NCBI GenBank assembly: GCA_037481775.1
Contig: JBBFKZ010000031.1
Span: 1-10,901, forward strand
DNA: 10,901 nucleotides
Source: Candidatus Bathyarchaeia archaeon
Lineage (GTDB): Archaea > Thermoproteota > Bathyarchaeia > Bathyarchaeales > Bathycorpusculaceae
Reading direction: 5' to 3'
Position numbers and translations under genes: made by a program. The notes beneath the pieces were generated by a model. It was not told the DNA's origin. It saw only the letters and a list, made by a program, of their open reading frames with translations, and did no database searches. Positions 1 to 10,901 of this stretch are shown in pieces; the first letter of the stretch is position 1, and each line of letters starts with the position of its first letter.

Positions 1-495
1 CGCTGTGGCTTTATAACCGCGGTAGGTTCCGCTGGGATGAGTACCGAAAACGTGCGTGCCAGTCTTATCGACGCCGCCGAAGATTAGCGAAACGCCGAAA
101 GGTCTAACACCAGCATGCTGCGTGTACATCTGCTGTATATCACATATTCTCTTGGTTACAACCTCTACGTCTATGGGCTCATCATAAGTTAACTTGTTGC
201 TCTGCGCATATATGCGTGCTTGGTCAATGAGCACTCTGGCGTCGGAGCTTAAGCCCACTATAGCTACACCAACATGCTCGTCAATCTTGAAGAGCTTCCA
301 TGAGTATCCGGCGTCTTCAAGAGGTTCTATATTTTCTTCTGATGCTAAAACTACTCCTTCTGCGCATTGAATCCCCAAAATTGTTGCGCCACGGTTAACT
401 AGCTCCATGGCATATTCAACTTGAAAGAGTCGCCCGTCTGGAGAGAAAACGGTTATAGCGCGGTCGTATGCTCCTGGTGCTGCAAACACAGACAT
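1..495 (-). CDS. psmA: 20S proteasome alpha subunit (partial, C-terminus outside window)
   Basis: Manual translation from ATG at 495: MSVFAAPGAYDRAITVFSPDGRLFQVEYAMELVNRGATILGI...KIDEHVGVAIVGLSSDARVL...YTQHAGVRPFGVSLIFGGVD. Contains the alpha-subunit N-terminal signature YDRAITVFSPDGRLFQVEYA and the RPFGVS motif. Frame is open to position 1. SD-like GTGAGGT upstream. Confidence 0.97.
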   Translation of the reverse strand, partial: MSVFAAPGAYDRAITVFSPDGRLFQVEYAMELVNRGATILGIQCAEGVVLASEENIEPLEDAGYSWKLFKIDEHVGVAIVGLSSDARVLIDQARIYAQSNKLTYDEPIDVEVVTKRICDIQQMYTQHAGVRPFGVSLIFGGVDKTGTHVFGTHPSGTYRGYKATA

Positions 496-685: not shown

Positions 686-1288
686 GTGAAAAGCGCTGTG
701 AGTTTTGAAGTGTTAACATGGGAAAAGACTTACAGCATGCTGCTTACGCAAGCGGAAAAAATCCGCCAAAGCGGCTTTAAACCAGATATCATTGTCGGCA
801 TCGCGAAGGGCGGCTGGGTTCCCGCGCGGGTTTTGGCAGACCTTCTTGAGGTTTCGGATCTTGCCGCGGTTCGAATAGAGTTTTACGTGGGTGTTGCTGA
901 AACCAAAACTGAGCCTACGTTAACAGAAGGCGTTTCCACAGCGGCGATAGCGGGCAAAAAAGCGCTGTTGGTTGATGATGTTGCAGACACGGGAAAAAGC
1001 CTGCAACTTGCCAGAGCGCATGTCCTGCAGCATGGTGCAGCTGACGCCAGAATCGCCACCTTGTACAAGAAGCCATGGAGCATAATTAAGCCGGATTACT
1101 GCGAGGCAGAGACAAACTGTTGGGTTGTGTTTCCATGGGAGAGAAAGGAAACCCTAAGAAAAATCGTTATGAAGCATCGAGAAAAAGGCGTGATTGACGC
1201 GGAAATGGCGAAACTGGTAAAAGCAGGTTTGCCCAAACAACTGGCAAAAAGGTTTCTTAAGGAAATATTTGAGGCGGGAAAGTGCTGA
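686..1288 (+). CDS. Type I phosphoribosyltransferase (purine PRTase-like)
   Basis: Motifs KPDIIVGIAKGGWVPARVLADLL and PRPP-binding LLVDDVADTGKSL, plus C-terminal WVVFPWE. Start placed at GTG 686 behind GGGGGAG (675-681). Confidence 0.9.
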   Translation: MKSAVSFEVLTWEKTYSMLLTQAEKIRQSGFKPDIIVGIAKGGWVPARVLADLLEVSDLAAVRIEFYVGVAETKTEPTLTEGVSTAAIAGKKALLVDDVADTGKSLQLARAHVLQHGAADARIATLYKKPWSIIKPDYCEAETNCWVVFPWERKETLRKIVMKHREKGVIDAEMAKLVKAGLPKQLAKRFLKEIFEAGKC

Positions 1289-1848
1289 AATACATCGAAG
1301 AGACGGGAAAATACGTGGAGATCACGGCTTTTAGACGCGCCAGAATCAGTAAAGTAGAAGATCTGCTTAGGGCAGTTGATAGAGAGAAGCCGCGGCATGT
1401 TTGGGTTCAGTTTTTTGACGCTGAACTTGTGGCTACTTGGCAGCACTTGTATTTTGCGGTTTTTAATGCACTGGTAGCCTCCAAAAATGCGCGAAATATC
1501 TCGAAGAACCCAGCAATGGAGGTTATGCTCTATGCTTCCGCCCAGCACCAGATCAGAAAAGCCATTGATTTGTTGGGTGTAAAATGCGGATCGGGAAACG
1601 TGGCGGCAGTCATAATCGGCGAGAATCCCGAACATGTTAAGGTCGTTCTCGCGGCGGTTTCCGCTGCCATCGGCGTTGCGCCTGACGACACGGCTCTTGA
1701 ACTTTCAGATAAGAAAATACAGAGAATCCGCGAAGCTTTCGAAATTTCAGATAAAGAGCTTGAAGCAGTCAAAGAGAAGGACAATATTGGGCAGGCGCTG
1801 ATTAAGCTTGTCATCGAGCGCGTGGCTTTGCTTGCTACTCAGGTTTAA
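1282..1848 (+). CDS. cgi121: KEOPS complex subunit Cgi121
   Basis: VQFFDAELVATWQHLYFAVFNAL...RNISKNPAMEVMLYASAQHQIRKAIDLLGVK matches the Cgi121/TPRKB pattern. GTG start overlaps the PRTase 3' end by 7 nt, with GAGGCGGG upstream. Confidence 0.9.
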   Translation: MLKYIEETGKYVEITAFRRARISKVEDLLRAVDREKPRHVWVQFFDAELVATWQHLYFAVFNALVASKNARNISKNPAMEVMLYASAQHQIRKAIDLLGVKCGSGNVAAVIIGENPEHVKVVLAAVSAAIGVAPDDTALELSDKKIQRIREAFEISDKELEAVKEKDNIGQALIKLVIERVALLATQV

Positions 1849-1851
1849 CGT

Positions 1852-2397
1852 TTAGAGCAGTTTTTCTTTTACAACCGTTAAAACGTCACTTGGTTTTATG
1901 AGCGATAAGCCCGTTAACCCGCCGACAACTTCAATTAACAGAATTTTGTCAGGATTCTCCAAGTCAACTTTTCTATTTATGCTTGTAGCAGCGGCTTTTA
2001 TGAAATCCCTACTGTGGATGCTAGTAAAGCGCTTTTCCACTGTGACTCTGAAGGTTTCGTTCTCTCTGATGCGCAACGAGAGCTCTTCGGCTGCACATTT
2101 CACTTCATCCAAATCGGTGCGCACAACCTTTTCGACTGGAATGATGCGCAGAGAGTACCGAAACTTGTATGGCTGCTCCTGCAGAATGGCGCGGAGTTTC
2201 CCTATGACCTCATAAGGGTTGAACGCGGATTTCGCCGCGACCAAACCGCTAATGCCAGTTTTGCCGACGACAGGCGCGGGGTCGCCCAAGTCTTCCTTAA
2301 GCAGGTAGAGTAGCTCATAGCACATTGGTTTTTCGTTTCCACGTGAAGTTGTAGCTAAAAGGTTGAAATCTTCAAGCAAGGTTTTCAGCTTCGCCAA
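1852..2397 (-). CDS. Stand-alone THUMP-domain RNA-binding protein (Tan1/THUMPD1-like)
   Basis: DFNLLATTSRGNE N-terminus, RIIPVEKVV, ETFRVTVEKR...VDLENPDKILLIEVVG THUMP core, and no fused catalytic domain. The TTG start is uncertain by a few codons. Confidence 0.88.
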   Translation of the reverse strand: MAKLKTLLEDFNLLATTSRGNEKPMCYELLYLLKEDLGDPAPVVGKTGISGLVAAKSAFNPYEVIGKLRAILQEQPYKFRYSLRIIPVEKVVRTDLDEVKCAAEELSLRIRENETFRVTVEKRFTSIHSRDFIKAAATSINRKVDLENPDKILLIEVVGGLTGLSLIKPSDVLTVVKEKLL

Positions 2398-2410
2398 CAG
2401 TTGTTTCTAA

Positions 2411-2477
2411 TGGTCAGTGCAGGTCTGTGGCTTTTCTCACAGCTTGACGCTCGAAGCCGTCGCCTCACATCATTCCA
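2411..2477 (-). ncRNA. Box C/D 2'-O-methylation guide sRNA (dual guide)
   Basis: Minus strand: TGG-A-ATGATGT (box C, 2467-2473)-GAGGCGACGGCT (D' guide)-TCGA (D', 2451-2454)-GCGTCAAGCT-GTGAGAA (C', 2434-2440)-AAGCCACAGACCTGCA (D guide)-CTGA (box D, 2414-2417)-CCA. Terminal TGG/CCA stem with canonical K-turn spacing, 67 nt, wholly intergenic. Both guides are complementary to SSU rRNA helix 34 motifs recalled from memory. Confidence 0.82.
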
Positions 2478-2579
2478 CCAGTAAAGTGGAAACCCGCGGA
2501 TTTATCCGTTTTGATACTTTCAGGCACTACGCTTAAATGCAGACGCTTTTCCCTTCTCTACTCAAAAAGGCGAGGCAGA

Positions 2580-3542
2580 ATGAGGAAAACTTGCAAGCCT
2601 GTTATTGTTGTTCACGGCGGCGCGGGCACTTGGGATTTAGCACGCAGTCAAGCAGCGCTAAAAAGCGTCAAAGAAGCCGCGGAAACGGGTTTTAACACAA
2701 TGCATACGGGCGGAACGGCAGTTGATGCTGTTGTTGAAGCCGTCGCGCTTATGGAGGACTCGGGCAACTTTAACGCTGGCTGCGGTTCAGCACTGAATGT
2801 AGAAAAGCGCGTAGAGATGGAAGCTTCAGTGATGGATGGCGCGACGCTGCAGGCAGGTGCCGTGGGGCTTTTAAGCGACGTGCGGAATCCAGTGCGTTTG
2901 GCACGGGTTGTGATGGAGAAAACGGATCATGTTTTCGTCGTAGGCAAAGGCGCTGAGGAATTAGCTCAGATTTTCGGTTTAGAAAGGCGTGAAGCCGTCA
3001 CTGCGGCGCAGCTTGAACGTTACGAAGCACAGCTGAAGAGTCTCCTCGCCGGTAGCGGCTATCTGCCACGGCTGGCGGATTTGGTTAAGGCGCATCCTGA
3101 AGTTTTTCAACTTGAAACCGTGGGCGCAGTGGCATTGGACAGCGCCGGTAATGTGGCTGCTGCAACATCCACTGGCGGGTTCCCGCTGAAACTGGCTGGC
3201 AGAATAGGTGATTCGCCTTCAATTGGATGTGGCACTTATGCGGATAACCGTTCCGGAGCATGCTCTGCATCAGGCGTAGGCGAAGTAGCAATCAGACTTG
3301 TACTGGCTAAAACCGTCTGCGACTACATTAGGAAAGGGAGGTCACCGCAGAAAGCTGTTGAAGCAGCAGTGGCGCTCATAAAGGAGCGTATCCCGAATGT
3401 TTACAATGTCATGGGTTTGATTGCGGTTGACGTTAACGGGAGAATAGGCGCTGCACATAGCACGACTAATCTCTGTTGGGCTTACATGACCGCGGCGCTT
3501 GAGGAGCCGGTGGCTTCGCTTAAAGCCAAATTTGTAGAGTGA
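2580..3542 (+). CDS. iaaA: Isoaspartyl peptidase / plant-type L-asparaginase (Ntn hydrolase)
   Basis: VIVVHGGAG, FNAGCGS, EMEASVMDG, autocleavage/nucleophile site E|TVGAVALD, ATSTGG, GRIGDSP. Start moved to ATG 2580 after AGGCGAGG. Confidence 0.93.
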   Translation: MRKTCKPVIVVHGGAGTWDLARSQAALKSVKEAAETGFNTMHTGGTAVDAVVEAVALMEDSGNFNAGCGSALNVEKRVEMEASVMDGATLQAGAVGLLSDVRNPVRLARVVMEKTDHVFVVGKGAEELAQIFGLERREAVTAAQLERYEAQLKSLLAGSGYLPRLADLVKAHPEVFQLETVGAVALDSAGNVAAATSTGGFPLKLAGRIGDSPSIGCGTYADNRSGACSASGVGEVAIRLVLAKTVCDYIRKGRSPQKAVEAAVALIKERIPNVYNVMGLIAVDVNGRIGAAHSTTNLCWAYMTAALEEPVASLKAKFVE

Positions 3543-3624
3543 AAAAGTTTTCAGAGATGAATAATGACGCAGAAAACAGCCTTTTTGTTTGTGCTTCCAC
3601 TTGAGAATACGACATTTGACGAAT

Positions 3625-3637
3625 GAAAATGTTTAAA
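3625..3637 (+). promoter_or_regulatory. BRE/TATA promoter of the acidic micropeptide gene
   Basis: GAAAATG-TTTAAA, predicting a TSS near 3660, just upstream of the leader hairpin and SD. Confidence 0.55.
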
Positions 3638-3678
3638 GCGCGCTATTGTAAAGCTACACTACCACTCGAGCCCGTAAG

Positions 3679-3686
3679 GGAGGTGA
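3679..3686 (+). promoter_or_regulatory. Full-consensus Shine-Dalgarno site GGAGGTGA
   Basis: GGAGGTGA lies 6 nt before ATG 3693 and is the strongest SD I noticed in the window. Confidence 0.8.
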
Positions 3687-3692
3687 AAAGGA

Positions 3693-3761
3693 ATGATATT
3701 CGAAGAGGACGAGGAATGGGAAGAAATTGAAGATGAAGAATGGGAAGAAGAAGAATGGTAA
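3693..3761 (+). CDS. 22-aa hyper-acidic Trp-repeat micropeptide MIFEEDEEWEEIEDEEWEEEEW, function unknown
   Basis: ATG..TAA ORF with perfect SD, upstream TATA and downstream terminator-like element. The two EDEEWEE copies differ only by three synonymous third-position changes. Confidence 0.75.
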   Translation: MIFEEDEEWEEIEDEEWEEEEW

Positions 3762-3773
3762 TCAAAAAATGAT

Positions 3774-3801
3774 TGTGAAAAACTTTTTACATCTTTCTTT
3801 C
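3774..3801 (+). terminator. Putative terminator after the micropeptide
   Basis: TGTGAAA-AACT-TTTTACA hairpin containing a T5 run, followed by TCTTTCTTTC. Confidence 0.5.
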
Positions 3802-3934
3802 GTATGTTCAATGCAGTTTTCTGCGCGATGATTTTTTGCGCCTAACTAGCCCAAGACCAAACAGGCTAAACGCATATTTTAAACAATCAAGAGAAGCAGC
3901 TCATGGCTATTTTTACTTTCCAGCGAAGTTACTG

Positions 3935-3940
3935 TTTATA
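3935..3940 (+). promoter_or_regulatory. Putative TATA box of ABCE1
   Basis: TTTATA 35 nt upstream of ATG 3976. No clear SD, implying a very short leader. Confidence 0.4.
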
Positions 3941-3975
3941 ACCAAGCAGCCTTCATTATTGAAGATGAGTTTGAT

Positions 3976-5769
3976 ATGACCCGCGTTGCCGTATTAGACG
4001 CCGACAAATGCAAAGTAAAAAAGTGCAATCAACTATGCGTGAGTTTCTGCCCTATGGTGCGCAGCCGCGTGGAAGCCATACGAATAGAAGGCAACAAAGC
4101 CGTGATCTCGGAAAGACTGTGCAGCGGCTGCGGCATCTGCGTCAAAAAATGCCCCTTCCAAGCCATCAGCATAGTTAACCTTCCAGACGAGCTGGAGAAA
4201 GACTGCAGCCACCGCTTCAGCGCAAACAGCTTCAAACTTTTCAGGTTGCCCACGCCTTCGCCGGGCATGGTTTTGGGCTTGCTGGGGCAAAACGGCATAG
4301 GCAAAACCACCACTCTGAAGGTGCTTTCAGGCGAGTTAAAACCTAACTTGGGCCGATACAATAGCCCGCCTGAGTGGGAAGAGATAATCCAGTACTATAG
4401 GGGTTCAACCCTACAAGATTACTTCCAGAGAATGAGCCAAAGCAATCTTAAGGTGGTGCATAAGCCGCAGTACGTGGACAGGATTCCAAAGGTTATTTCA
4501 GGCAAAGTCGGCGAACTTCTTGAAAAAGTAGATGAAAGAAAAATCTTAGATAAACTTGTCGCGGACCTTGAACTCAAGAAGATTTGGGACCGCCCATTGG
4601 ATGTGCTCAGCGGCGGCGAGCTTCAGCGCGTCGCGGTGGCAGCTGCTCTAAGCCGCGAGGCTGACGTGTACCTCTTTGATGAACCATCCAGCTACTTGGA
4701 TGTTAAGCAGCGGCTGCTGGTAGCCAAGGCCATAAGAAGCCTGAAACTTCAGCAGAAAACCATAATCGTAGCTGAACATGACTTAGCCATAATCGATTAC
4801 TTGTCGGATCAGATCTGCATTTTTTACGGTCAGCCCGGCGTCTACGGCGTAGTTTCCCACGTACATGGCGTACGCACAGGCATAAACATTTACCTGCAAG
4901 GTTACATTCCAGACGAGAACATGCTGTTCAGGAGAGAAGCCATAATCTTCCATGAGAAACCGCCTGCGGTGGGCGCAAGCGGCGGCGAACTCTTGCTGCG
5001 ATGGGGACGTATCGAGAAAACATTTGAGGGGTTCAAGCTTGTTGCTGAGCCGGGCGAAATAAGACGTGGCGAAATCATCGGCATTATGGGGCCGAATGGC
5101 ATTGGGAAAACAACCTTTGTGAAGATTTTGGCTGGGCTTGAAGAGACAGATGACAAGCAGAAGCTGGGCACGTTGACTGTAAGCTACAAGCCACAGTACA
5201 TCGCTGCAGACTACGCGGGCACTGTTCAAGAACTTCTCATGGGCATTGCCAAAGAAACCTTTACATCAAGCTGGTACAAAACCGAGATTCTCCAACCCTT
5301 AAAGATTAACCTACTTCTGGACAGATGTGTCATGGAGCTCAGCGGTGGAGAGTTGCAGAAAGTCGCAATCGCCGCCTGCTTATCGCGTAAAGCAGACTTG
5401 CTTCTGCTGGATGAGCCCAGCGCTTACTTGGACGTGGAGGAGAGGCTGAATATGGCGCGCACGTTACGGCGCGTTGTTGAAGCAAATAATGTGCCTGCTT
5501 TCGTCGTTGAGCATGACGTTGTAGCCCAAGACTTCATTGCTGACCGAATCATGGTTTTCAGCGGAGAACCAGGCGTGAAAGGCATCGCGAATGCGCCTAC
5601 AAGCCTGCGAAAGGGAATGAATGCTTTCTTAAAGGAAATGAATGTTACGTTCCGCCGAGATCCTGTTACGAGGCGGCCAAGAGTTAACAAGGAAGGCTCA
5701 AAACTTGACACAATCCAGAAACAAATTGGTGAATATTATTATACACGTTTGAAGCAAAAACAAGAGTAG
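3976..5769 (+). CDS. rli1: ABCE1/Rli1 ribosome recycling ATPase
   Basis: N-terminal two-[4Fe-4S] domain (CKVKKCNQLCVSFCP; CSGCGICVKKCP), two NBDs (GQNGIGKTT, GPNGIGKTT), two LSGGELQ signatures, two DEPS Walker B motifs, and hinge TFRRD...RPRVNK.GS..D. Confidence 0.98.
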   Translation: MTRVAVLDADKCKVKKCNQLCVSFCPMVRSRVEAIRIEGNKAVISERLCSGCGICVKKCPFQAISIVNLPDELEKDCSHRFSANSFKLFRLPTPSPGMVLGLLGQNGIGKTTTLKVLSGELKPNLGRYNSPPEWEEIIQYYRGSTLQDYFQRMSQSNLKVVHKPQYVDRIPKVISGKVGELLEKVDERKILDKLVADLELKKIWDRPLDVLSGGELQRVAVAAALSREADVYLFDEPSSYLDVKQRLLVAKAIRSLKLQQKTIIVAEHDLAIIDYLSDQICIFYGQPGVYGVVSHVHGVRTGINIYLQGYIPDENMLFRREAIIFHEKPPAVGASGGELLLRWGRIEKTFEGFKLVAEPGEIRRGEIIGIMGPNGIGKTTFVKILAGLEETDDKQKLGTLTVSYKPQYIAADYAGTVQELLMGIAKETFTSSWYKTEILQPLKINLLLDRCVMELSGGELQKVAIAACLSRKADLLLLDEPSAYLDVEERLNMARTLRRVVEANNVPAFVVEHDVVAQDFIADRIMVFSGEPGVKGIANAPTSLRKGMNAFLKEMNVTFRRDPVTRRPRVNKEGSKLDTIQKQIGEYYYTRLKQKQE

Positions 5770-5885: not shown

Positions 5886-7409
5886 GTGGCGCAAGCAACC
5901 TTTGAGGAAATCAGTGCATCCGACTTTTTCTACCGCAACCGCGACATCGCAGGCTTCACTAACCCGTCAAGAGCCATTTTCGCGGCGATCCGCGAGCTAG
6001 TGGAGAACTCGTTGGATGCGGCTGAAAGCCAGAAGATACCGCCAGACATTTATGTGCGCCTCTCTTTTGAAGGCGAAGCCAGCAAAGACACTCAGATTTA
6101 CAAGTTAAGAGTCGAAGACAACGGTTGCGGCATTCACCCTCGGTTTATTCCCTCAGCCTTTGGGCAAGTCCTTTACGGTTCCAAGTACAAGCTGAAACAG
6201 ATGCGGGGCACGTTTGGCTTAGGCGGCAAAATGGCTGTGCTGTACGGGCAGATAACAACGCACCAGCCAGCCTATGTTACCTCGAGCACTGGCCTGCCTA
6301 AGATTTACTCGTTTAAGCTGATGATTGACATTCAGCGTAACCGTCCCATAATTCTAGACCGCAAAGTGCTCATCAACAAGGAGCAGTGGCACGGCACAAT
6401 TGTAGAGTTCACTCTTGAAGGCGACTACTTGCGTGCTAGATCCAAAATTCTGGAGTATTTTAAGCAGACAGCCATGGTGAACCCATACGCGAATTTGACT
6501 TTTGTTGACCCGAAAGGCAGGCTTTACAAGTTTACGAGAGCGACCACGGAGATGCCTAACCCGCCGAAAGAAACCGAACCGCATCCCTACGGCGTTGACG
6601 TGGAGCTTCTACAGCGGCTTATTCAAGTAACTCCACATAAAAATATGCTGGATTTTCTGAAGCATCACTTTCACAGAGTCGGCGACGTAACTGCACAGAA
6701 GTTCCTGGAGTTCAGCGGGTTAAGCCCCTCCAAAAATCCTAAAAAACTTTCACATGAGGAAATTGTACGGCTAATGCATAACTTGAAGAAGTTTAAGGAT
6801 TTTCTGCCTCCTGATGCCAGCTGTCTATCGCCTCTAGGCGAAGAACTTCTAAAGGCTGGAATTTCGAAGGAGCTGAAACCTGAATATCTTGTTGTTCACC
6901 AACGCAAACCCGCAACTTACGCGGGCCACCCCTTCATCATCGAATTAGGCATTGCCTACGGTGGGGAGGTTCCGAGCAAAGGAAGCTTTGTAATCTACCG
7001 TTTCGCCAACCGGATTCCGCTGCTCTATGATGAAGCAAGCGATGTTTCATTTAGAGTGATAAACGCTATGAATTGGCGCAGATACAAGGTTTCGCTTGAC
7101 ATGCCCATCGCCATTGTGGTGCACATCTGCAGCACCAAAGTGCCCTACAAAACAGTTGGCAAAGAATTCATAGCAGACCGCCCTGAAGTTAGAAGGGAAA
7201 TAGCAAACGCGCTAAGGGAAGCAGCCCGTCAACTTCAGCATTTTCTGTCTAAGCGGGAGCATGTGGATAAGGAGCGCAAGCGTCTCGGCATTTTCGCGAA
7301 GTACCTTCCAAAGATTGCGCAGTTTTCCGCCAATCTCGCTGGAAAAGAAAAACTTCCGGATATAGATAAATTGTTAAAGAGTGTGCAAAAATATGGAGAA
7401 GAAACGTAA
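5886..7409 (+). CDS. top6B: DNA topoisomerase VI subunit B
   Basis: GHKL motifs ELVENSLDA, VEDNGCG and RGTFGLG, H2TH region, transducer RFANRIPLLY and KVPYKTVGKE. GTG start with SD GGAGG. Confidence 0.98.
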   Translation: MAQATFEEISASDFFYRNRDIAGFTNPSRAIFAAIRELVENSLDAAESQKIPPDIYVRLSFEGEASKDTQIYKLRVEDNGCGIHPRFIPSAFGQVLYGSKYKLKQMRGTFGLGGKMAVLYGQITTHQPAYVTSSTGLPKIYSFKLMIDIQRNRPIILDRKVLINKEQWHGTIVEFTLEGDYLRARSKILEYFKQTAMVNPYANLTFVDPKGRLYKFTRATTEMPNPPKETEPHPYGVDVELLQRLIQVTPHKNMLDFLKHHFHRVGDVTAQKFLEFSGLSPSKNPKKLSHEEIVRLMHNLKKFKDFLPPDASCLSPLGEELLKAGISKELKPEYLVVHQRKPATYAGHPFIIELGIAYGGEVPSKGSFVIYRFANRIPLLYDEASDVSFRVINAMNWRRYKVSLDMPIAIVVHICSTKVPYKTVGKEFIADRPEVRREIANALREAARQLQHFLSKREHVDKERKRLGIFAKYLPKIAQFSANLAGKEKLPDIDKLLKSVQKYGEET

Positions 7410-8484
7410 GTATAGTGTAACCGAAAAGAAGAGTGAAGTTATAGGAAGCCTGCAGGCTTTCGGAGCTAAAATTTATGAGCAAATGGAACAAGGAGATTTC
7501 CCCTCTATTGCAATGCCCAGTCGCTCTACTCAGAACATCTATTACGATCAGGCGCTTCGCCAGTTTATTTTAGGCGATAAAAGCGTGCGCAGAAGCGCCA
7601 GGAACATTCGCCACGTGAAGCCTTTCACGCAGCTTGTTTGGGTTGCAAGATTTTCACATGAGCTTACCACGCAACGCAAGACCTCCACTTTAAGAGACGT
7701 GTACTATTCTGCTCAAGCCTACGAAATGACCTTCAAGGATCAGCAGGAGTCCGACAACATCATTACGGACTTGGAAACAGTTCTCGGTCTCTCACGGGAA
7801 GACTTCAACATTTTCCCCGAGGAACGCTCCGCAGTCTTCGGAGACCTCACCATAGAGTACACAGTGCCCGGCTACGAGGGCAAAACCCTAAACCTAACCA
7901 CACATCCAGACGGCGTGTTAATCGGTCCAGCGTTGACGTCAGCAGAATTTGTAAGCACCACAGCCGACAAAATCATAGCTATAGAGAAAGGCGGTTTATT
8001 CACACGGTTCATCGAGGAAAATGTGCATAAGAAATTTAATGCGCTGCTGGTGCTCACCGCCGGACAAGCGCCTAGAGCGACGAGGCACTTCATTAGGCGG
8101 CTGCACACGGAATTAAATCTGCCCGTTTTCATCTTCACAGACGGTGACCCATGGGGAATGCACATTGCCATGGTTATCATAAGCGGCTCTGCGAATGCGG
8201 CTCACCTGCGGGAGCTAAACACGCCTGACGCGAAATGGAGCGGCGTCTGGGCAACAGACATCGTCAACTATAAGCTGCCAACGGATCCGCTGGACGAGGT
8301 GGACATTAAGCGGCTTTATGAATTGCAGAAGGATCCGCGGTATAAGGAGGATCCATTGTGGCAGAGGGAAATCAAAACATTTCTGAAAATCAAGCGTAAG
8401 GCTGAGCAAGAGGCCTTCAGCCGCTACGGGTTAACCTATATCGTGGATGAGTACTTGCCTGCAAAACTTGAAGAGACAAAGTAA
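7393..8484 (+). CDS. top6A: DNA topoisomerase VI subunit A
   Basis: Catalytic-Tyr motif STLRDVYY, TOPRIM motifs IEKGG and TDGDPWG, KAEQEA. ATG 7393 is preferred over GTG 7381 and gives a 17-nt overlap with top6B. Confidence 0.97.
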   Translation: MEKKRKYSVTEKKSEVIGSLQAFGAKIYEQMEQGDFPSIAMPSRSTQNIYYDQALRQFILGDKSVRRSARNIRHVKPFTQLVWVARFSHELTTQRKTSTLRDVYYSAQAYEMTFKDQQESDNIITDLETVLGLSREDFNIFPEERSAVFGDLTIEYTVPGYEGKTLNLTTHPDGVLIGPALTSAEFVSTTADKIIAIEKGGLFTRFIEENVHKKFNALLVLTAGQAPRATRHFIRRLHTELNLPVFIFTDGDPWGMHIAMVIISGSANAAHLRELNTPDAKWSGVWATDIVNYKLPTDPLDEVDIKRLYELQKDPRYKEDPLWQREIKTFLKIKRKAEQEAFSRYGLTYIVDEYLPAKLEETK

Positions 8485-9310: not shown

Positions 9311-10901
9311 ATGCCTATCCGCCAACCAATAGTATGCGTACTCGGCCACGTGGATACAGGCAAGACTCTGCTTTTGGATAGAATTAGAAAGACAAGTGTG
9401 CAGGCGAGAGAAGCAGGCGGCATAACTCAGCACATCGGCGCCAGTTTCTTCCCTGTTGAAACACTCAAGCAGCTTATGGGACCCCTGCTTTCAGCAATAA
9501 AAGGCGAAATCCAGATTCCAGGCTTACTGATAATTGACACACCCGGGCATGAAGCGTTCACTAACCTGAGGCGGAGAGGCGGAAGCGTCGCTGACATAGC
9601 AATCCTCGTAATCGATATTCTACGCGGTTTTGAGGCGCAAACCTACGAGTGCATAGAAATCTTGAAAGCACGCAAGACGCCGTTTATAGTGGCCGTTAAC
9701 AAAATAGACCGCATTTCAGGCTGGAAACCTCAGCCAGACACACCCTTCTATAAGGCCTATGCGGCGCAGGACGCCTATGTAAAAGAAAGCTTGGATAACA
9801 AGCTCTACGAGATTATGGGCACGTTCTCACGCTTGGGTTTCCGCGCCAACCGCTTCGACCAAATCACAGACTTTACAACAACAATTGCTCTTGTGCCCAC
9901 CAGCGCTAAGACTGGCGAAGGCTTAAACGAGCTGCTCATGGTTCTCGTCGGCTTAACGCAACAGTACTTGAAGAAGCGACTGCAAACCACGGAAGGCCCA
10001 GCTAAAGGCTCTGTTCTCGAAATTAAAGAGGAGCCAGGTTTGGGCTTAACGTTGAACACCATAATTTATGATGGCTCGCTTAAAAAGGACGATTTAATCG
10101 TAATAGGCGGAAAAGAGAAGCCCATCATAACCCGCATAAGGGCAATTCTGGTTCCCAAACCTTTAGATGAAATCAGAGACCCCCGCGACAGGTTCTCGTC
10201 CGTTGACTGCGTCTTCGCCGCCGCAGGCGTAAAAATCGTCGCGTCAGGCTTGGAGGGCGCTCTTGCAGGCGCATCACTCTATGCCGTGCCTACTAGCGAG
10301 GACGCCGAGAAGTATGCTAAGCTGGTTAACGAGGAGATTGAAAAAATCAGAATCTCCACTGATGTGGAAGGCGTAGTTTTGAAGGCGGACACACTGGGGT
10401 CTTTGGAGGCCATTGCGGAAATTTTGAAACAGAACAACGTGCAGATCAGGATAGCCGATGTGGGAGATGTTTCCAAAAGAGATGTTATAGAAGCGTCAAT
10501 AGTGAAGGAGCATGAGCCGCTTCATGGCGTTATCTTAGCGTTTAACGTTAAGGTTTTGCCAGATGCTGCAGAAGAAGCGGAAGCAAGAAAAGTCCAGATA
10601 TTCCGCGAGCAAATCATCTATCATCTGGTAGAGAACTATTTGAAGTGGCTTAAGGCTCAACGTGAAGCTAAACTATCACAGGAGTTTGAAAACCTCATCA
10701 AGCCGGGAAAAATTCGCGTCCTTGAAGGTTATGTTTTCCGACGGGCAAAACCCGCAATCTTCGGCGTAGAAATTCTAGGCGGCCAGCTAAAGCCGAAGTA
10801 CCAACTCATAAGAGCAGAAGACGGCGCAGACTTGGGCGAAGTGCAGCAAATCCAAGACCGAGGCAAAGCCATATCAGAAGCCAAGCAGGGCATGCAAGTA
10901 G
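9311..10901 (+). CDS. infB: Translation initiation factor aIF5B / IF-2 (partial, C-terminus outside window)
   Basis: Manual translation from ATG 9311: MPIRQPIVCVLGHVDTGKTLLLDRIR...EAGGITQHIGA...IDTPGHEAFTNLRRRGGS...NKID...SAKTGEG...KADTLGSLEA. The frame stays open to the window end (530 codons). Confidence 0.98.
   Translation, partial: MPIRQPIVCVLGHVDTGKTLLLDRIRKTSVQAREAGGITQHIGASFFPVETLKQLMGPLLSAIKGEIQIPGLLIIDTPGHEAFTNLRRRGGSVADIAILVIDILRGFEAQTYECIEILKARKTPFIVAVNKIDRISGWKPQPDTPFYKAYAAQDAYVKESLDNKLYEIMGTFSRLGFRANRFDQITDFTTTIALVPTSAKTGEGLNELLMVLVGLTQQYLKKRLQTTEGPAKGSVLEIKEEPGLGLTLNTIIYDGSLKKDDLIVIGGKEKPIITRIRAILVPKPLDEIRDPRDRFSSVDCVFAAAGVKIVASGLEGALAGASLYAVPTSEDAEKYAKLVNEEIEKIRISTDVEGVVLKADTLGSLEAIAEILKQNNVQIRIADVGDVSKRDVIEASIVKEHEPLHGVILAFNVKVLPDAAEEAEARKVQIFREQIIYHLVENYLKWLKAQREAKLSQEFENLIKPGKIRVLEGYVFRRAKPAIFGVEILGGQLKPKYQLIRAEDGADLGEVQQIQDRGKAISEAKQGMQV

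Follow-up and report, generated by a model that had tools for sequence, protein, structure and literature searches.

A predicted box C/D guide RNA of Bathyarchaeia with guides directed to both strands of helix 34 in 16S rRNA

The stretch of DNA analyzed here, called the window throughout, comprises the 10,901 nucleotides (nt) of contig JBBFKZ010000031.1 (assembly GCA_037481775.1) of a Candidatus Bathyarchaeia archaeon. On its minus strand, at 2411..2477, it carries an element of about 67 nt that we read as a genuine box C/D small RNA (sRNA) of the Bathyarchaeia. The D' guide of this RNA is predicted to direct 2'-O-methylation of G1024 in the organism's own 16S ribosomal RNA (rRNA), while the D guide would select G1162 through imperfect pairing, both nucleotides being located in helix 34. 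We give this combined reading a probability of about 0.8, and we regard it as very probable that the locus is a real sRNA gene. The RNA belongs to a previously uncatalogued box C/D sRNA family of Bathyarchaeia. The curated Rfam families gave no match at gathering score over the whole window, and the literature searched for Bathyarchaeia together with sRNA/fibrillarin or snoRNA yielded no description of a C/D sRNA from Bathyarchaeia.

Anatomy, distribution and promoter of the element

Read from the window, the minus strand from 2477 to 2411 is UGG-A-AUGAUGU-GAGGCGACGGCU-UCGA-GC(GUCAA)GC-U-GUGAGAA-AAGCCACAGACCUGCA-CUGA-CCA. It is intergenic and occupies the 113-bp gap between two divergent frames, that of a THUMP-domain gene on the minus strand and that of an asparaginase-family gene on the plus strand. 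An earlier note, made from the letters of the window, had proposed a complete C-D'-C'-D sRNA candidate on this strand; the boxes, the spacers and a GG/CC terminal stem are indeed all present. Conservation was assessed with a 151-nt BLAST query around the element, run against the own genome (G000) and 40 relatives at E below 1e-4. The element is present in 30 of these 41 genomes, the own genome included. In distant relatives the match narrows to query positions 54-119, equivalent to window 2477-2412, a block of about 66 nt whose limits are exactly those of the predicted RNA. The 28 full-length copies were aligned, without L008 and L030, both truncated at the end of a contig; the counts that follow refer to this alignment.

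The terminal stem is formed by UGG (2475..2477) and its partner CCA (2411..2413), with two G-C pairs that are invariant (28/28), the CC of the 3' half among them. Box C, AUGAUGU (2467..2473), and the canonical box D, CUGA (2414..2417), are invariant in all 28 copies as well. Box C agrees with the consensus RUGAUGA at six of seven positions, and its departure, the terminal U, is accounted for by a pair that this base can form with the A preceding box D (U-A in 26 copies, U-G in the other two). Box C is followed by the D' spacer GAGGCGACGGCU (2455..2466), assigned as a guide by its pairing with 16S rRNA. This spacer is exactly 12 nt long in the window and 11 nt in two relatives, and its core, AGGCGACGG, is the same in every copy. 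Box D' (UCGA, 2451..2454) is degenerate; its GA is invariant (28/28) and the two bases before the GA vary.

Between D' and C' there is a stem-loop, GC(GUCAA)GC (2442..2450), with a stem of 2 bp and a loop of 5 nt, in which the G-C pair is found in 27 of the 28 copies and the C-G pair in all of them; in some relatives this stem is longer and of other sequence. The loop itself is variable. Box C' (GUGAGAA, 2434..2440) is also degenerate and retains the UGA core. The relatives have GUGAGAA, GUGAAAA, AUGAGAA or AUGAAAA at this place, and the core is visible before alignment as well as in the MAFFT alignment, in which it is placed with gaps. The D spacer, AAGCCACAGACCUGCA (2418..2433), is variable too, with 16 nt in the window as against 12-17 nt among the relatives. 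Its last 12 nt, CACAGACCUGCA (2418-2429), are the guide proper, assigned again by pairing with 16S rRNA.

Box C, box D and the stem flanking them identify the element as a candidate C/D sRNA. Applying the pairing rules of the kink-turn (K-turn) to these motifs, we infer that box C and box D would form a terminal K-turn, and the short stem between D' and C' would make the internal motif a K-turn as well and not a kink-loop (K-loop). Thermodynamic folding of the single RNA gave z = -0.71, and RNAalifold detected no meaningful structure in the alignment; neither result was used as evidence. As the folding program has no model of K-turns, a missing fold signal is expected.

A covariance model (R1) was built with Infernal from the 28 copies, Infernal being one of the checks proposed in the earlier note. 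In the own genome the model finds a single copy, with exactly the ends 2411-2477 (83.8 bits, E 2e-18). Among 151 genomes sampled from the class it matches 42, concentrated in the own order. By family, the matches are 14/15 in f1, 6/6 in f11, 2/2 in f10, 3/4 in f6, 6/7 in f20 and 2/2 in f22, and there is no match in f7 (0/5), f24 (0/27) or f35 (0/11). The other classes of the phylum, represented by about 131 genomes as estimated from the family tallies, gave only two weak matches (26-28 bits); the stricter Infernal filters used in large samples may miss matches of this kind. An exact pattern made of box C, the D' guide and a distal CUGACC was found in at least 120 stretches in a scan of one genome per GTDB species, and nearly all of the 80 records listed bear a title with Bathyarchaeia or Bathyarchaeota, as metagenome-assembled genomes. 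The conservation puts the element far beyond chance.

A promoter precedes the RNA on the same strand (2499..2513). It consists of a sequence resembling the transcription factor B recognition element (BRE), CAAAA at 2513-2509, and of a TATA box, ATAAAT at 2505-2500. When 158 distinct upstream regions are compared, the A/T content is 87-100% at positions -32 to -27 from box C, where the consensus is ATAAAT, and 75-92% at positions -39 to -36, where A prevails and a C comes before. The BRE/TATA pair ends about 25 nt upstream of the RNA. From the usual spacing of archaeal TATA boxes and start sites, transcription would begin near 2477, where the terminal stem starts. We take the conserved promoter as strong indirect evidence for a transcription unit that would begin with the sRNA. 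No RNA run is among the 22 sequencing runs listed for window positions 1500-4500.

These data also bear on whether the boxes could be a chance motif in a promoter region that gives rise to no stable RNA. Such an explanation has in its favor the degeneracy of the internal boxes and the missing fold signal, yet the latter is to be expected of K-turns, which are outside the model of the folding program. Across an order, the conserved block begins and ends exactly where the predicted RNA does, the positions of the boxes are invariant, the upstream promoter is conserved, and a strict box scan returned seven candidates in the own genome and none in the same genome reversed. We consider a chance motif extremely improbable.

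A second good C/D sRNA candidate was noticed on contig C2 of the own genome, on the minus strand from about 2943 downward (ATGATGA...CTGA, about 60 nt). Its D guide has a perfect 9-bp match to the own 16S rRNA, with the nucleotide opposite the fifth guide base upstream of the box (the N+5 site) at 1366, and upstream of the candidate is a box, CAAAAG..TTAAGT, closely similar to the window sRNA's promoter.

Pairing of the two guides with 16S rRNA

The own genome, which is archaeal, has a size of 1.82 Mb, is divided among 54 contigs and is 96.7% complete; it has a single gene each for 16S and 23S rRNA. The D' guide pairs with positions 1020-1029 of the 16S rRNA (GGCCGUCGCC) by nine contiguous Watson-Crick pairs (1021-1029) and a G.U pair at 1020. 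The fifth guide base upstream of box D' pairs with G1024, and this nucleotide corresponds to position 1061 of E. coli in a MAFFT alignment with rrsH. The result agrees with the earlier note, in which a 2'-O-methylguanosine (Gm) had been predicted at the equivalent of 1061, and we think it probable that the sRNA would guide formation of Gm at 1024. The D' guide stays fixed amid changing surroundings, which makes for a stronger argument than the statistics of a single match.

The D guide pairs with positions 1159-1168 (GCAGGUCAGU) at nine of ten positions, that is, by seven contiguous pairs, an A.A mismatch at guide position 9 and two more pairs. The N+5 nucleotide, G1162, is paired and corresponds to E. 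coli 1197. The site is the one that had been named for this guide, and the pairing is imperfect. The earlier note had also made its case depend on complementarity of at least 9 bp between the guides and the host 16S rRNA. If contiguous pairs are meant, this length is attained by the D' guide and not by the D guide with its 9/10. Set against rRNA complementarity of about 9-10 bp with a paired N+5 position, the D' guide is complete and the D guide marginal. The helix-34 site is the top rRNA match of the window D guide and of the commonest D guide of the relatives alike. As regards the length of the spacer, PMC7229835 describes guide position 1 as unused and the substrate as read over at most 10 nt; in the experiments it reports, surplus spacer bases loop out, and an archaeal ribonucleoprotein (RNP) is fully active with spacers of 21-23 nt.

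Two side observations concern the D guide. Box D and the terminal stem together read ACUGACC, perfectly complementary to GGUCAGU in the D target of the 16S rRNA; the D guide thus looks as if the 3' end of the RNA had been repeated imperfectly in tandem. A match of ten pairs (one of them G.U) between the D guide and a site on contig C10 (9182, minus strand) that follows the 16S gene by about 236 nt was rejected as probably due to chance, since in the relative G005, which has the same guide, the best match within the 16S-containing locus is the helix-34 site. Perfect 10-mers are expected by chance 4-5 times per guide genome-wide.

Superimposition of the Rfam SSU_rRNA_archaea consensus structure on positions 960-1230 of the own 16S rRNA indicates that 1019-1027 pair with 1157-1169, as helix 34, and that G1024 is paired with C1160 and C1023 with G1162. 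The two targets are the paired strands of this helix, as had been proposed, and the predicted methyl groups would be placed on neighboring base pairs, on opposite strands, in upper helix 34. Both strands are the same in the relatives for which the region was recovered (15/15 for each strand). In a chance test with 200,000 shuffles per guide against the own 16S and 23S rRNAs, only 0.03% of the shuffled D guides fell within 1150-1175, a stretch of the partner strand. None of the 36 tRNAs, a class of targets that the earlier note had wanted compared, reaches 9/10 with either guide.

A census of the D guides included 160 distinct sequences, in two of which no box D was found, leaving 158 to be counted; 120 of its loci had been picked by the D' guide pattern. 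A helix-34-type D guide, with the same 9/10 pattern, is found in 55 of the 158, in several families, and eight further sequences have at least eight Watson-Crick pairs. Most of the 55 have the guide ACUAACCUGC, with an A.C mismatch at guide position 8. The helix-34-type D guide being limited to some of the sequences, dual targeting would be confined to a subset, to which the window belongs. The conservation in relatives that the earlier note had wanted checked holds for the boxes and the D' guide, which are often located upstream of the THUMP gene, and does not hold for the D guide.

The sequences contain four solutions for pairing with the helix-34 site: CUAAC (the 55 minus 2), CAGAC (two sequences, the window and G005), UUGAC (L201 and L204), in which a G.U pair takes the place of the mismatch, and CUGGC (L203). 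All of these variants pair with the same target and all are without CUGA. The perfect complement, ACUGACCUGC, is found in none of the 160 sequences, though it is one transition away from the commonest form. Such a guide would contain CUGA and so create a false second box D, located 7 nt upstream of the true one. It is conceivable, at somewhat less than even odds in our judgment, that the perfect D guide is selected against because it would embed this second box D.

Several observations weigh against the reading of the element as a C/D sRNA with two guides to helix 34. The motifs are off consensus, with box C ending in U, box D' being UCGA and box C' GUGAGAA, and the element is below the gathering score of every Rfam family. 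The D spacer has 16 nt, compared with the typical archaeal 12 nt given in PMC7229835. The last three bases of the D' guide, GGC (2455-2457), are able to pair with GCC (2429-2431), a conserved sequence at the 5' end of the D spacer. This helix, with 82% of cells paired over the 28 relatives and little covariation (one pair has two compensatory changes), would lengthen the stem of the internal K-turn and compete with target binding. A 9/10 match anywhere in 16S and 23S rRNA was reached by 14% of the shuffled D guides and by 15% of the shuffled D' guides, so each match is weak when taken alone. The 120 pattern matches were chosen by means of the D' guide itself; they, and the census built on them, carry no information on its invariance. 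About 95 of the 158 sequences have other D guides, so that this guide is not conserved family-wide, and one of the others, GCCGUACUUACA, points to a GGGGAGUACGG stretch in the 16S-containing locus. The avoidance of CUGA is read from the absence of the perfect guide among sequences that are related and not independent. Lastly, the D guide has only seven contiguous pairs and two past the mismatch; a substrate of 8 bp was not modified in the assay of PMC7229835, which makes methylation of G1162 uncertain.

A rival explanation is an sRNA with a single functional guide, the D' guide to G1024, in which the D spacer is drifting or orphan and its likeness to helix 34 entails neither methylation nor useful binding. 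The internal mismatch, the shortness of the contiguous duplex and the in vitro result with 8 bp are in agreement with this explanation, as is the fact that many relatives have unrelated D-guide sequences while the D' guide stays fixed; orphan or decaying guides are described as frequent in archaeal sRNAs in PMC7994747. It is opposed by the conservation of the helix-34-type D guide itself, with its 9/10 pattern in 55 distinct sequences from several families, by the four sequence variants that retain pairing to the same site, by the rarity (0.03%) with which shuffled guides fall in the partner strand, and by the identity of the selected nucleotide with the site of yeast snR56. We judge a single-guide RNA unlikely, and we see a slightly better than even chance that the D guide binds or methylates the 3' strand of helix 34.

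The THUMP gene and other neighbors

The gene immediately downstream of the sRNA on the same strand (1852..2397) begins 14 nt past it and encodes a stand-alone THUMP-domain protein of 181 amino acids (Pfam THUMP, E 9e-6). Homologues of the protein are named 'tRNA acetyltransferase TAN1' by one source, and a sequence search of the PDB with it returned nothing relevant. In 83 of 146 loci a THUMP gene lies on the same strand within 160 nt downstream of the sRNA, the gap being about 55 nt in most relatives; the gap of 14 nt makes co-transcription likely in the window. THUMP was found in 112 of the 151 genomes of the class, including families f24 (25/27) and f35 (11/11), which have no sRNA, and it was not found with this query in f10 (0/2), though f10 carries the sRNA (2/2). 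The linkage between sRNA and THUMP gene is real, without strict co-occurrence.

Such a linkage might reflect a function in cis, in which the element would be the K-turn 5' leader of the THUMP mRNA, L7Ae would control translation or stability, and the guide role would be secondary. The THUMP frame of the window starts so close to the element that a separate promoter would not fit between them, and the proportion of loci with THUMP within 160 nt is also in line with a leader; a study by RNA immunoprecipitation sequencing reports translational regulation by L7Ae at K-turns (PMC5539422). Against this, 63 of the 146 loci have the element without an adjacent THUMP gene, and the gap of about 55 nt seen in most relatives often contains an A/T-rich box of its own. 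At the level of families, f10 has the sRNA and gave no THUMP with this query, and the sRNA-less f24 and f35 have THUMP. A leader would not explain a near-invariant 12-nt guide complementary to 16S rRNA, and we consider it improbable that the element is chiefly one.

A link to acetylation was tried as well and set aside. We take the CCG inside the D' target to be the equivalent of yeast N4-acetylcytidine 1280 (ac4C1280). The own genome yielded no match to PF13718, the acetyltransferase (GNAT) domain of Kre33/Nat10/TmcA, and this domain is above cut-off in only 3 of 41 genomes (the own genome and the 40 relatives); the PF05127 match in the own genome, at 28 bits, is generic and helicase-like. 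The lack of strict co-occurrence between THUMP gene and sRNA also told against the link, and so did the base-pairing of the C of CCG within the guide duplex. We hold it very unlikely that the sRNA and the Tan1-like THUMP protein make up a helix-34 unit, in which the small RNP (sRNP) would clamp the strands and the protein, delivered in cis, would act with a partner other than Nat10. Such a unit would parallel, by analogy, the eukaryotic network of snR4, snR40, snR55 and snR56 with Kre33-Tan1 on the same helix.

On the other side of the sRNA, the longest frame of the asparaginase-family gene runs from a TTG start at 2511 to 3542 on the plus strand. Translated from this TTG, it would overlap the sRNA promoter. 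In relatives, a distance of 40-140 nt separates the end of the matching protein alignment from the sRNA, and the gene therefore probably starts further downstream than this TTG. The window further encodes proteasome alpha (1-495, minus strand), a phosphoribosyltransferase (620-1288), CGI-121/KEOPS (1282-1848), ABCE1/RLI (3976-5769), topoisomerase VI B and A (5886-8484) and aIF5B/IF-2 (9311-10900); the genes around the sRNA are housekeeping and informational ones. An open reading frame at 1096-1635 (minus strand) has no family match and overlaps plus-strand genes, and is thus probably not a gene.

Proposed mechanism and comparison with known systems

A profile search of the own genome found the three proteins of an archaeal C/D RNP: L7Ae on contig C3 (PF01248, 103 bits), and Nop5 (PF01798, 244 bits) adjoining fibrillarin (PF01269, 318 bits) on contig C4. 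We propose that the sRNA is transcribed from its own BRE/TATA promoter, with a start at or beside the terminal stem. L7Ae would bind both K-turns, the terminal one of C/D and the internal one of C'/D', on which a Nop5-fibrillarin dimer would then assemble. The 12-nt D' guide would pair with the 5' strand of helix 34 and bring about 2'-O-methylation of G1024, and the D guide, with its one mismatch, would pair with the 3' strand and lead to methylation of G1162. The two targets being each other's pairing partners, one sRNP could hold the nascent strands of helix 34 apart and yet close. We infer from this arrangement that the sRNA may hold both strands during assembly of the head, with a chaperone effect.

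Helix 34 is located in the decoding head of the small subunit, and it is there that the two ribose methylations are predicted. The G1162 mark would fall on a position that is methylated in yeast and in humans, in support of an ancient or recurrent need for it. The RNA would be a clear case, found in nature, of a helix whose two strands are served by one sRNP, and avoidance of an embedded box D could explain mismatches tolerated in other guide RNAs. The family adds a C/D guide RNA to the Bathyarchaeia, a large uncultured class of archaea, and with its near-invariant D' guide and conserved promoter it should be easy to annotate in several hundred genomes.

The nearest general likeness is to the archaeal dual-guide C/D sRNAs, such as Sulfolobus sR1 and the Pyrococcus sR RNAs (489 sRNAs are treated in PMC4644070). 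The window RNA shares with them a length of about 60-70 nt and the order C/D'/C'/D, and also the predicted terminal K-turn, the 12-nt D' spacer, the N+5 rule applied to rRNA and a genome that encodes L7Ae, Nop5 and fibrillarin. It differs from them in having no sequence relative in Rfam, in a box C that ends in U, in degenerate D' and C' boxes, in a D spacer of 16 nt, and in an internal motif that is closed by a short stem and would thus be a K-turn, not a K-loop.

The idea that one sRNA acts as a chaperone on both strands of a helix is not new in kind. It was proposed in PMC4644070 for Nanoarchaeum equitans sR17 (helix 28) and sR15 (helix 30), with guides to opposite strands, and is restated in the review PMC7994747. 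In these RNAs, as in the window RNA, the strands recognized by the D and D' guides later form one 16S helix with each other, and the RNAs were proposed to help bring distant strands together. The helices are different (28 and 30 there, 34 here), the sequences are unrelated, and one of the two guides of the window RNA is imperfect.

A more specific likeness is to yeast snR56 and human U25, which act on 18S rRNA. In helix 34, snR56 guides Gm1428, equivalent to human Gm1490 (PMC2794176). Ten nucleotides of the window D guide, CACAGACCUG, are identical to the snR56 consensus guide, and by the N+5 rule both guides select the same G of a CAGGUC motif. In a permissive Rfam scan of window positions 2250-2650, snR56 (RF01188) was the sole match, a weak one made through the D guide (18.6 bits, E 2.7; gathering score 54), in which only the guide and box D align. 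A match confined to the guide points to convergence on the target, or to its retention, and not to membership in the family. The D-guide mismatch follows from the difference between archaeal 16S GGUCAG and the GGUCUG implied by the eukaryotic guide. Unlike the window RNA, snR56 has a single functional guide.

In yeast, snR56 binds the 3' strand of helix 34, and the opposite, 5' strand has its eukaryotic counterparts too. Yeast snR40, snR55 and snR4 resemble the window RNA as C/D RNPs that pair with the 5' strand of helix 34. We take the nucleotides concerned, Um1269 (2'-O-methyluridine), Gm1271 and ac4C1280, to be placed off the equivalent of E. coli 1061. According to PMC5464676, the three RNAs engage this strand during assembly of the small subunit, their sites are Um1269, Gm1271 and ac4C1280, and snR4 guides the acetylation by Kre33.

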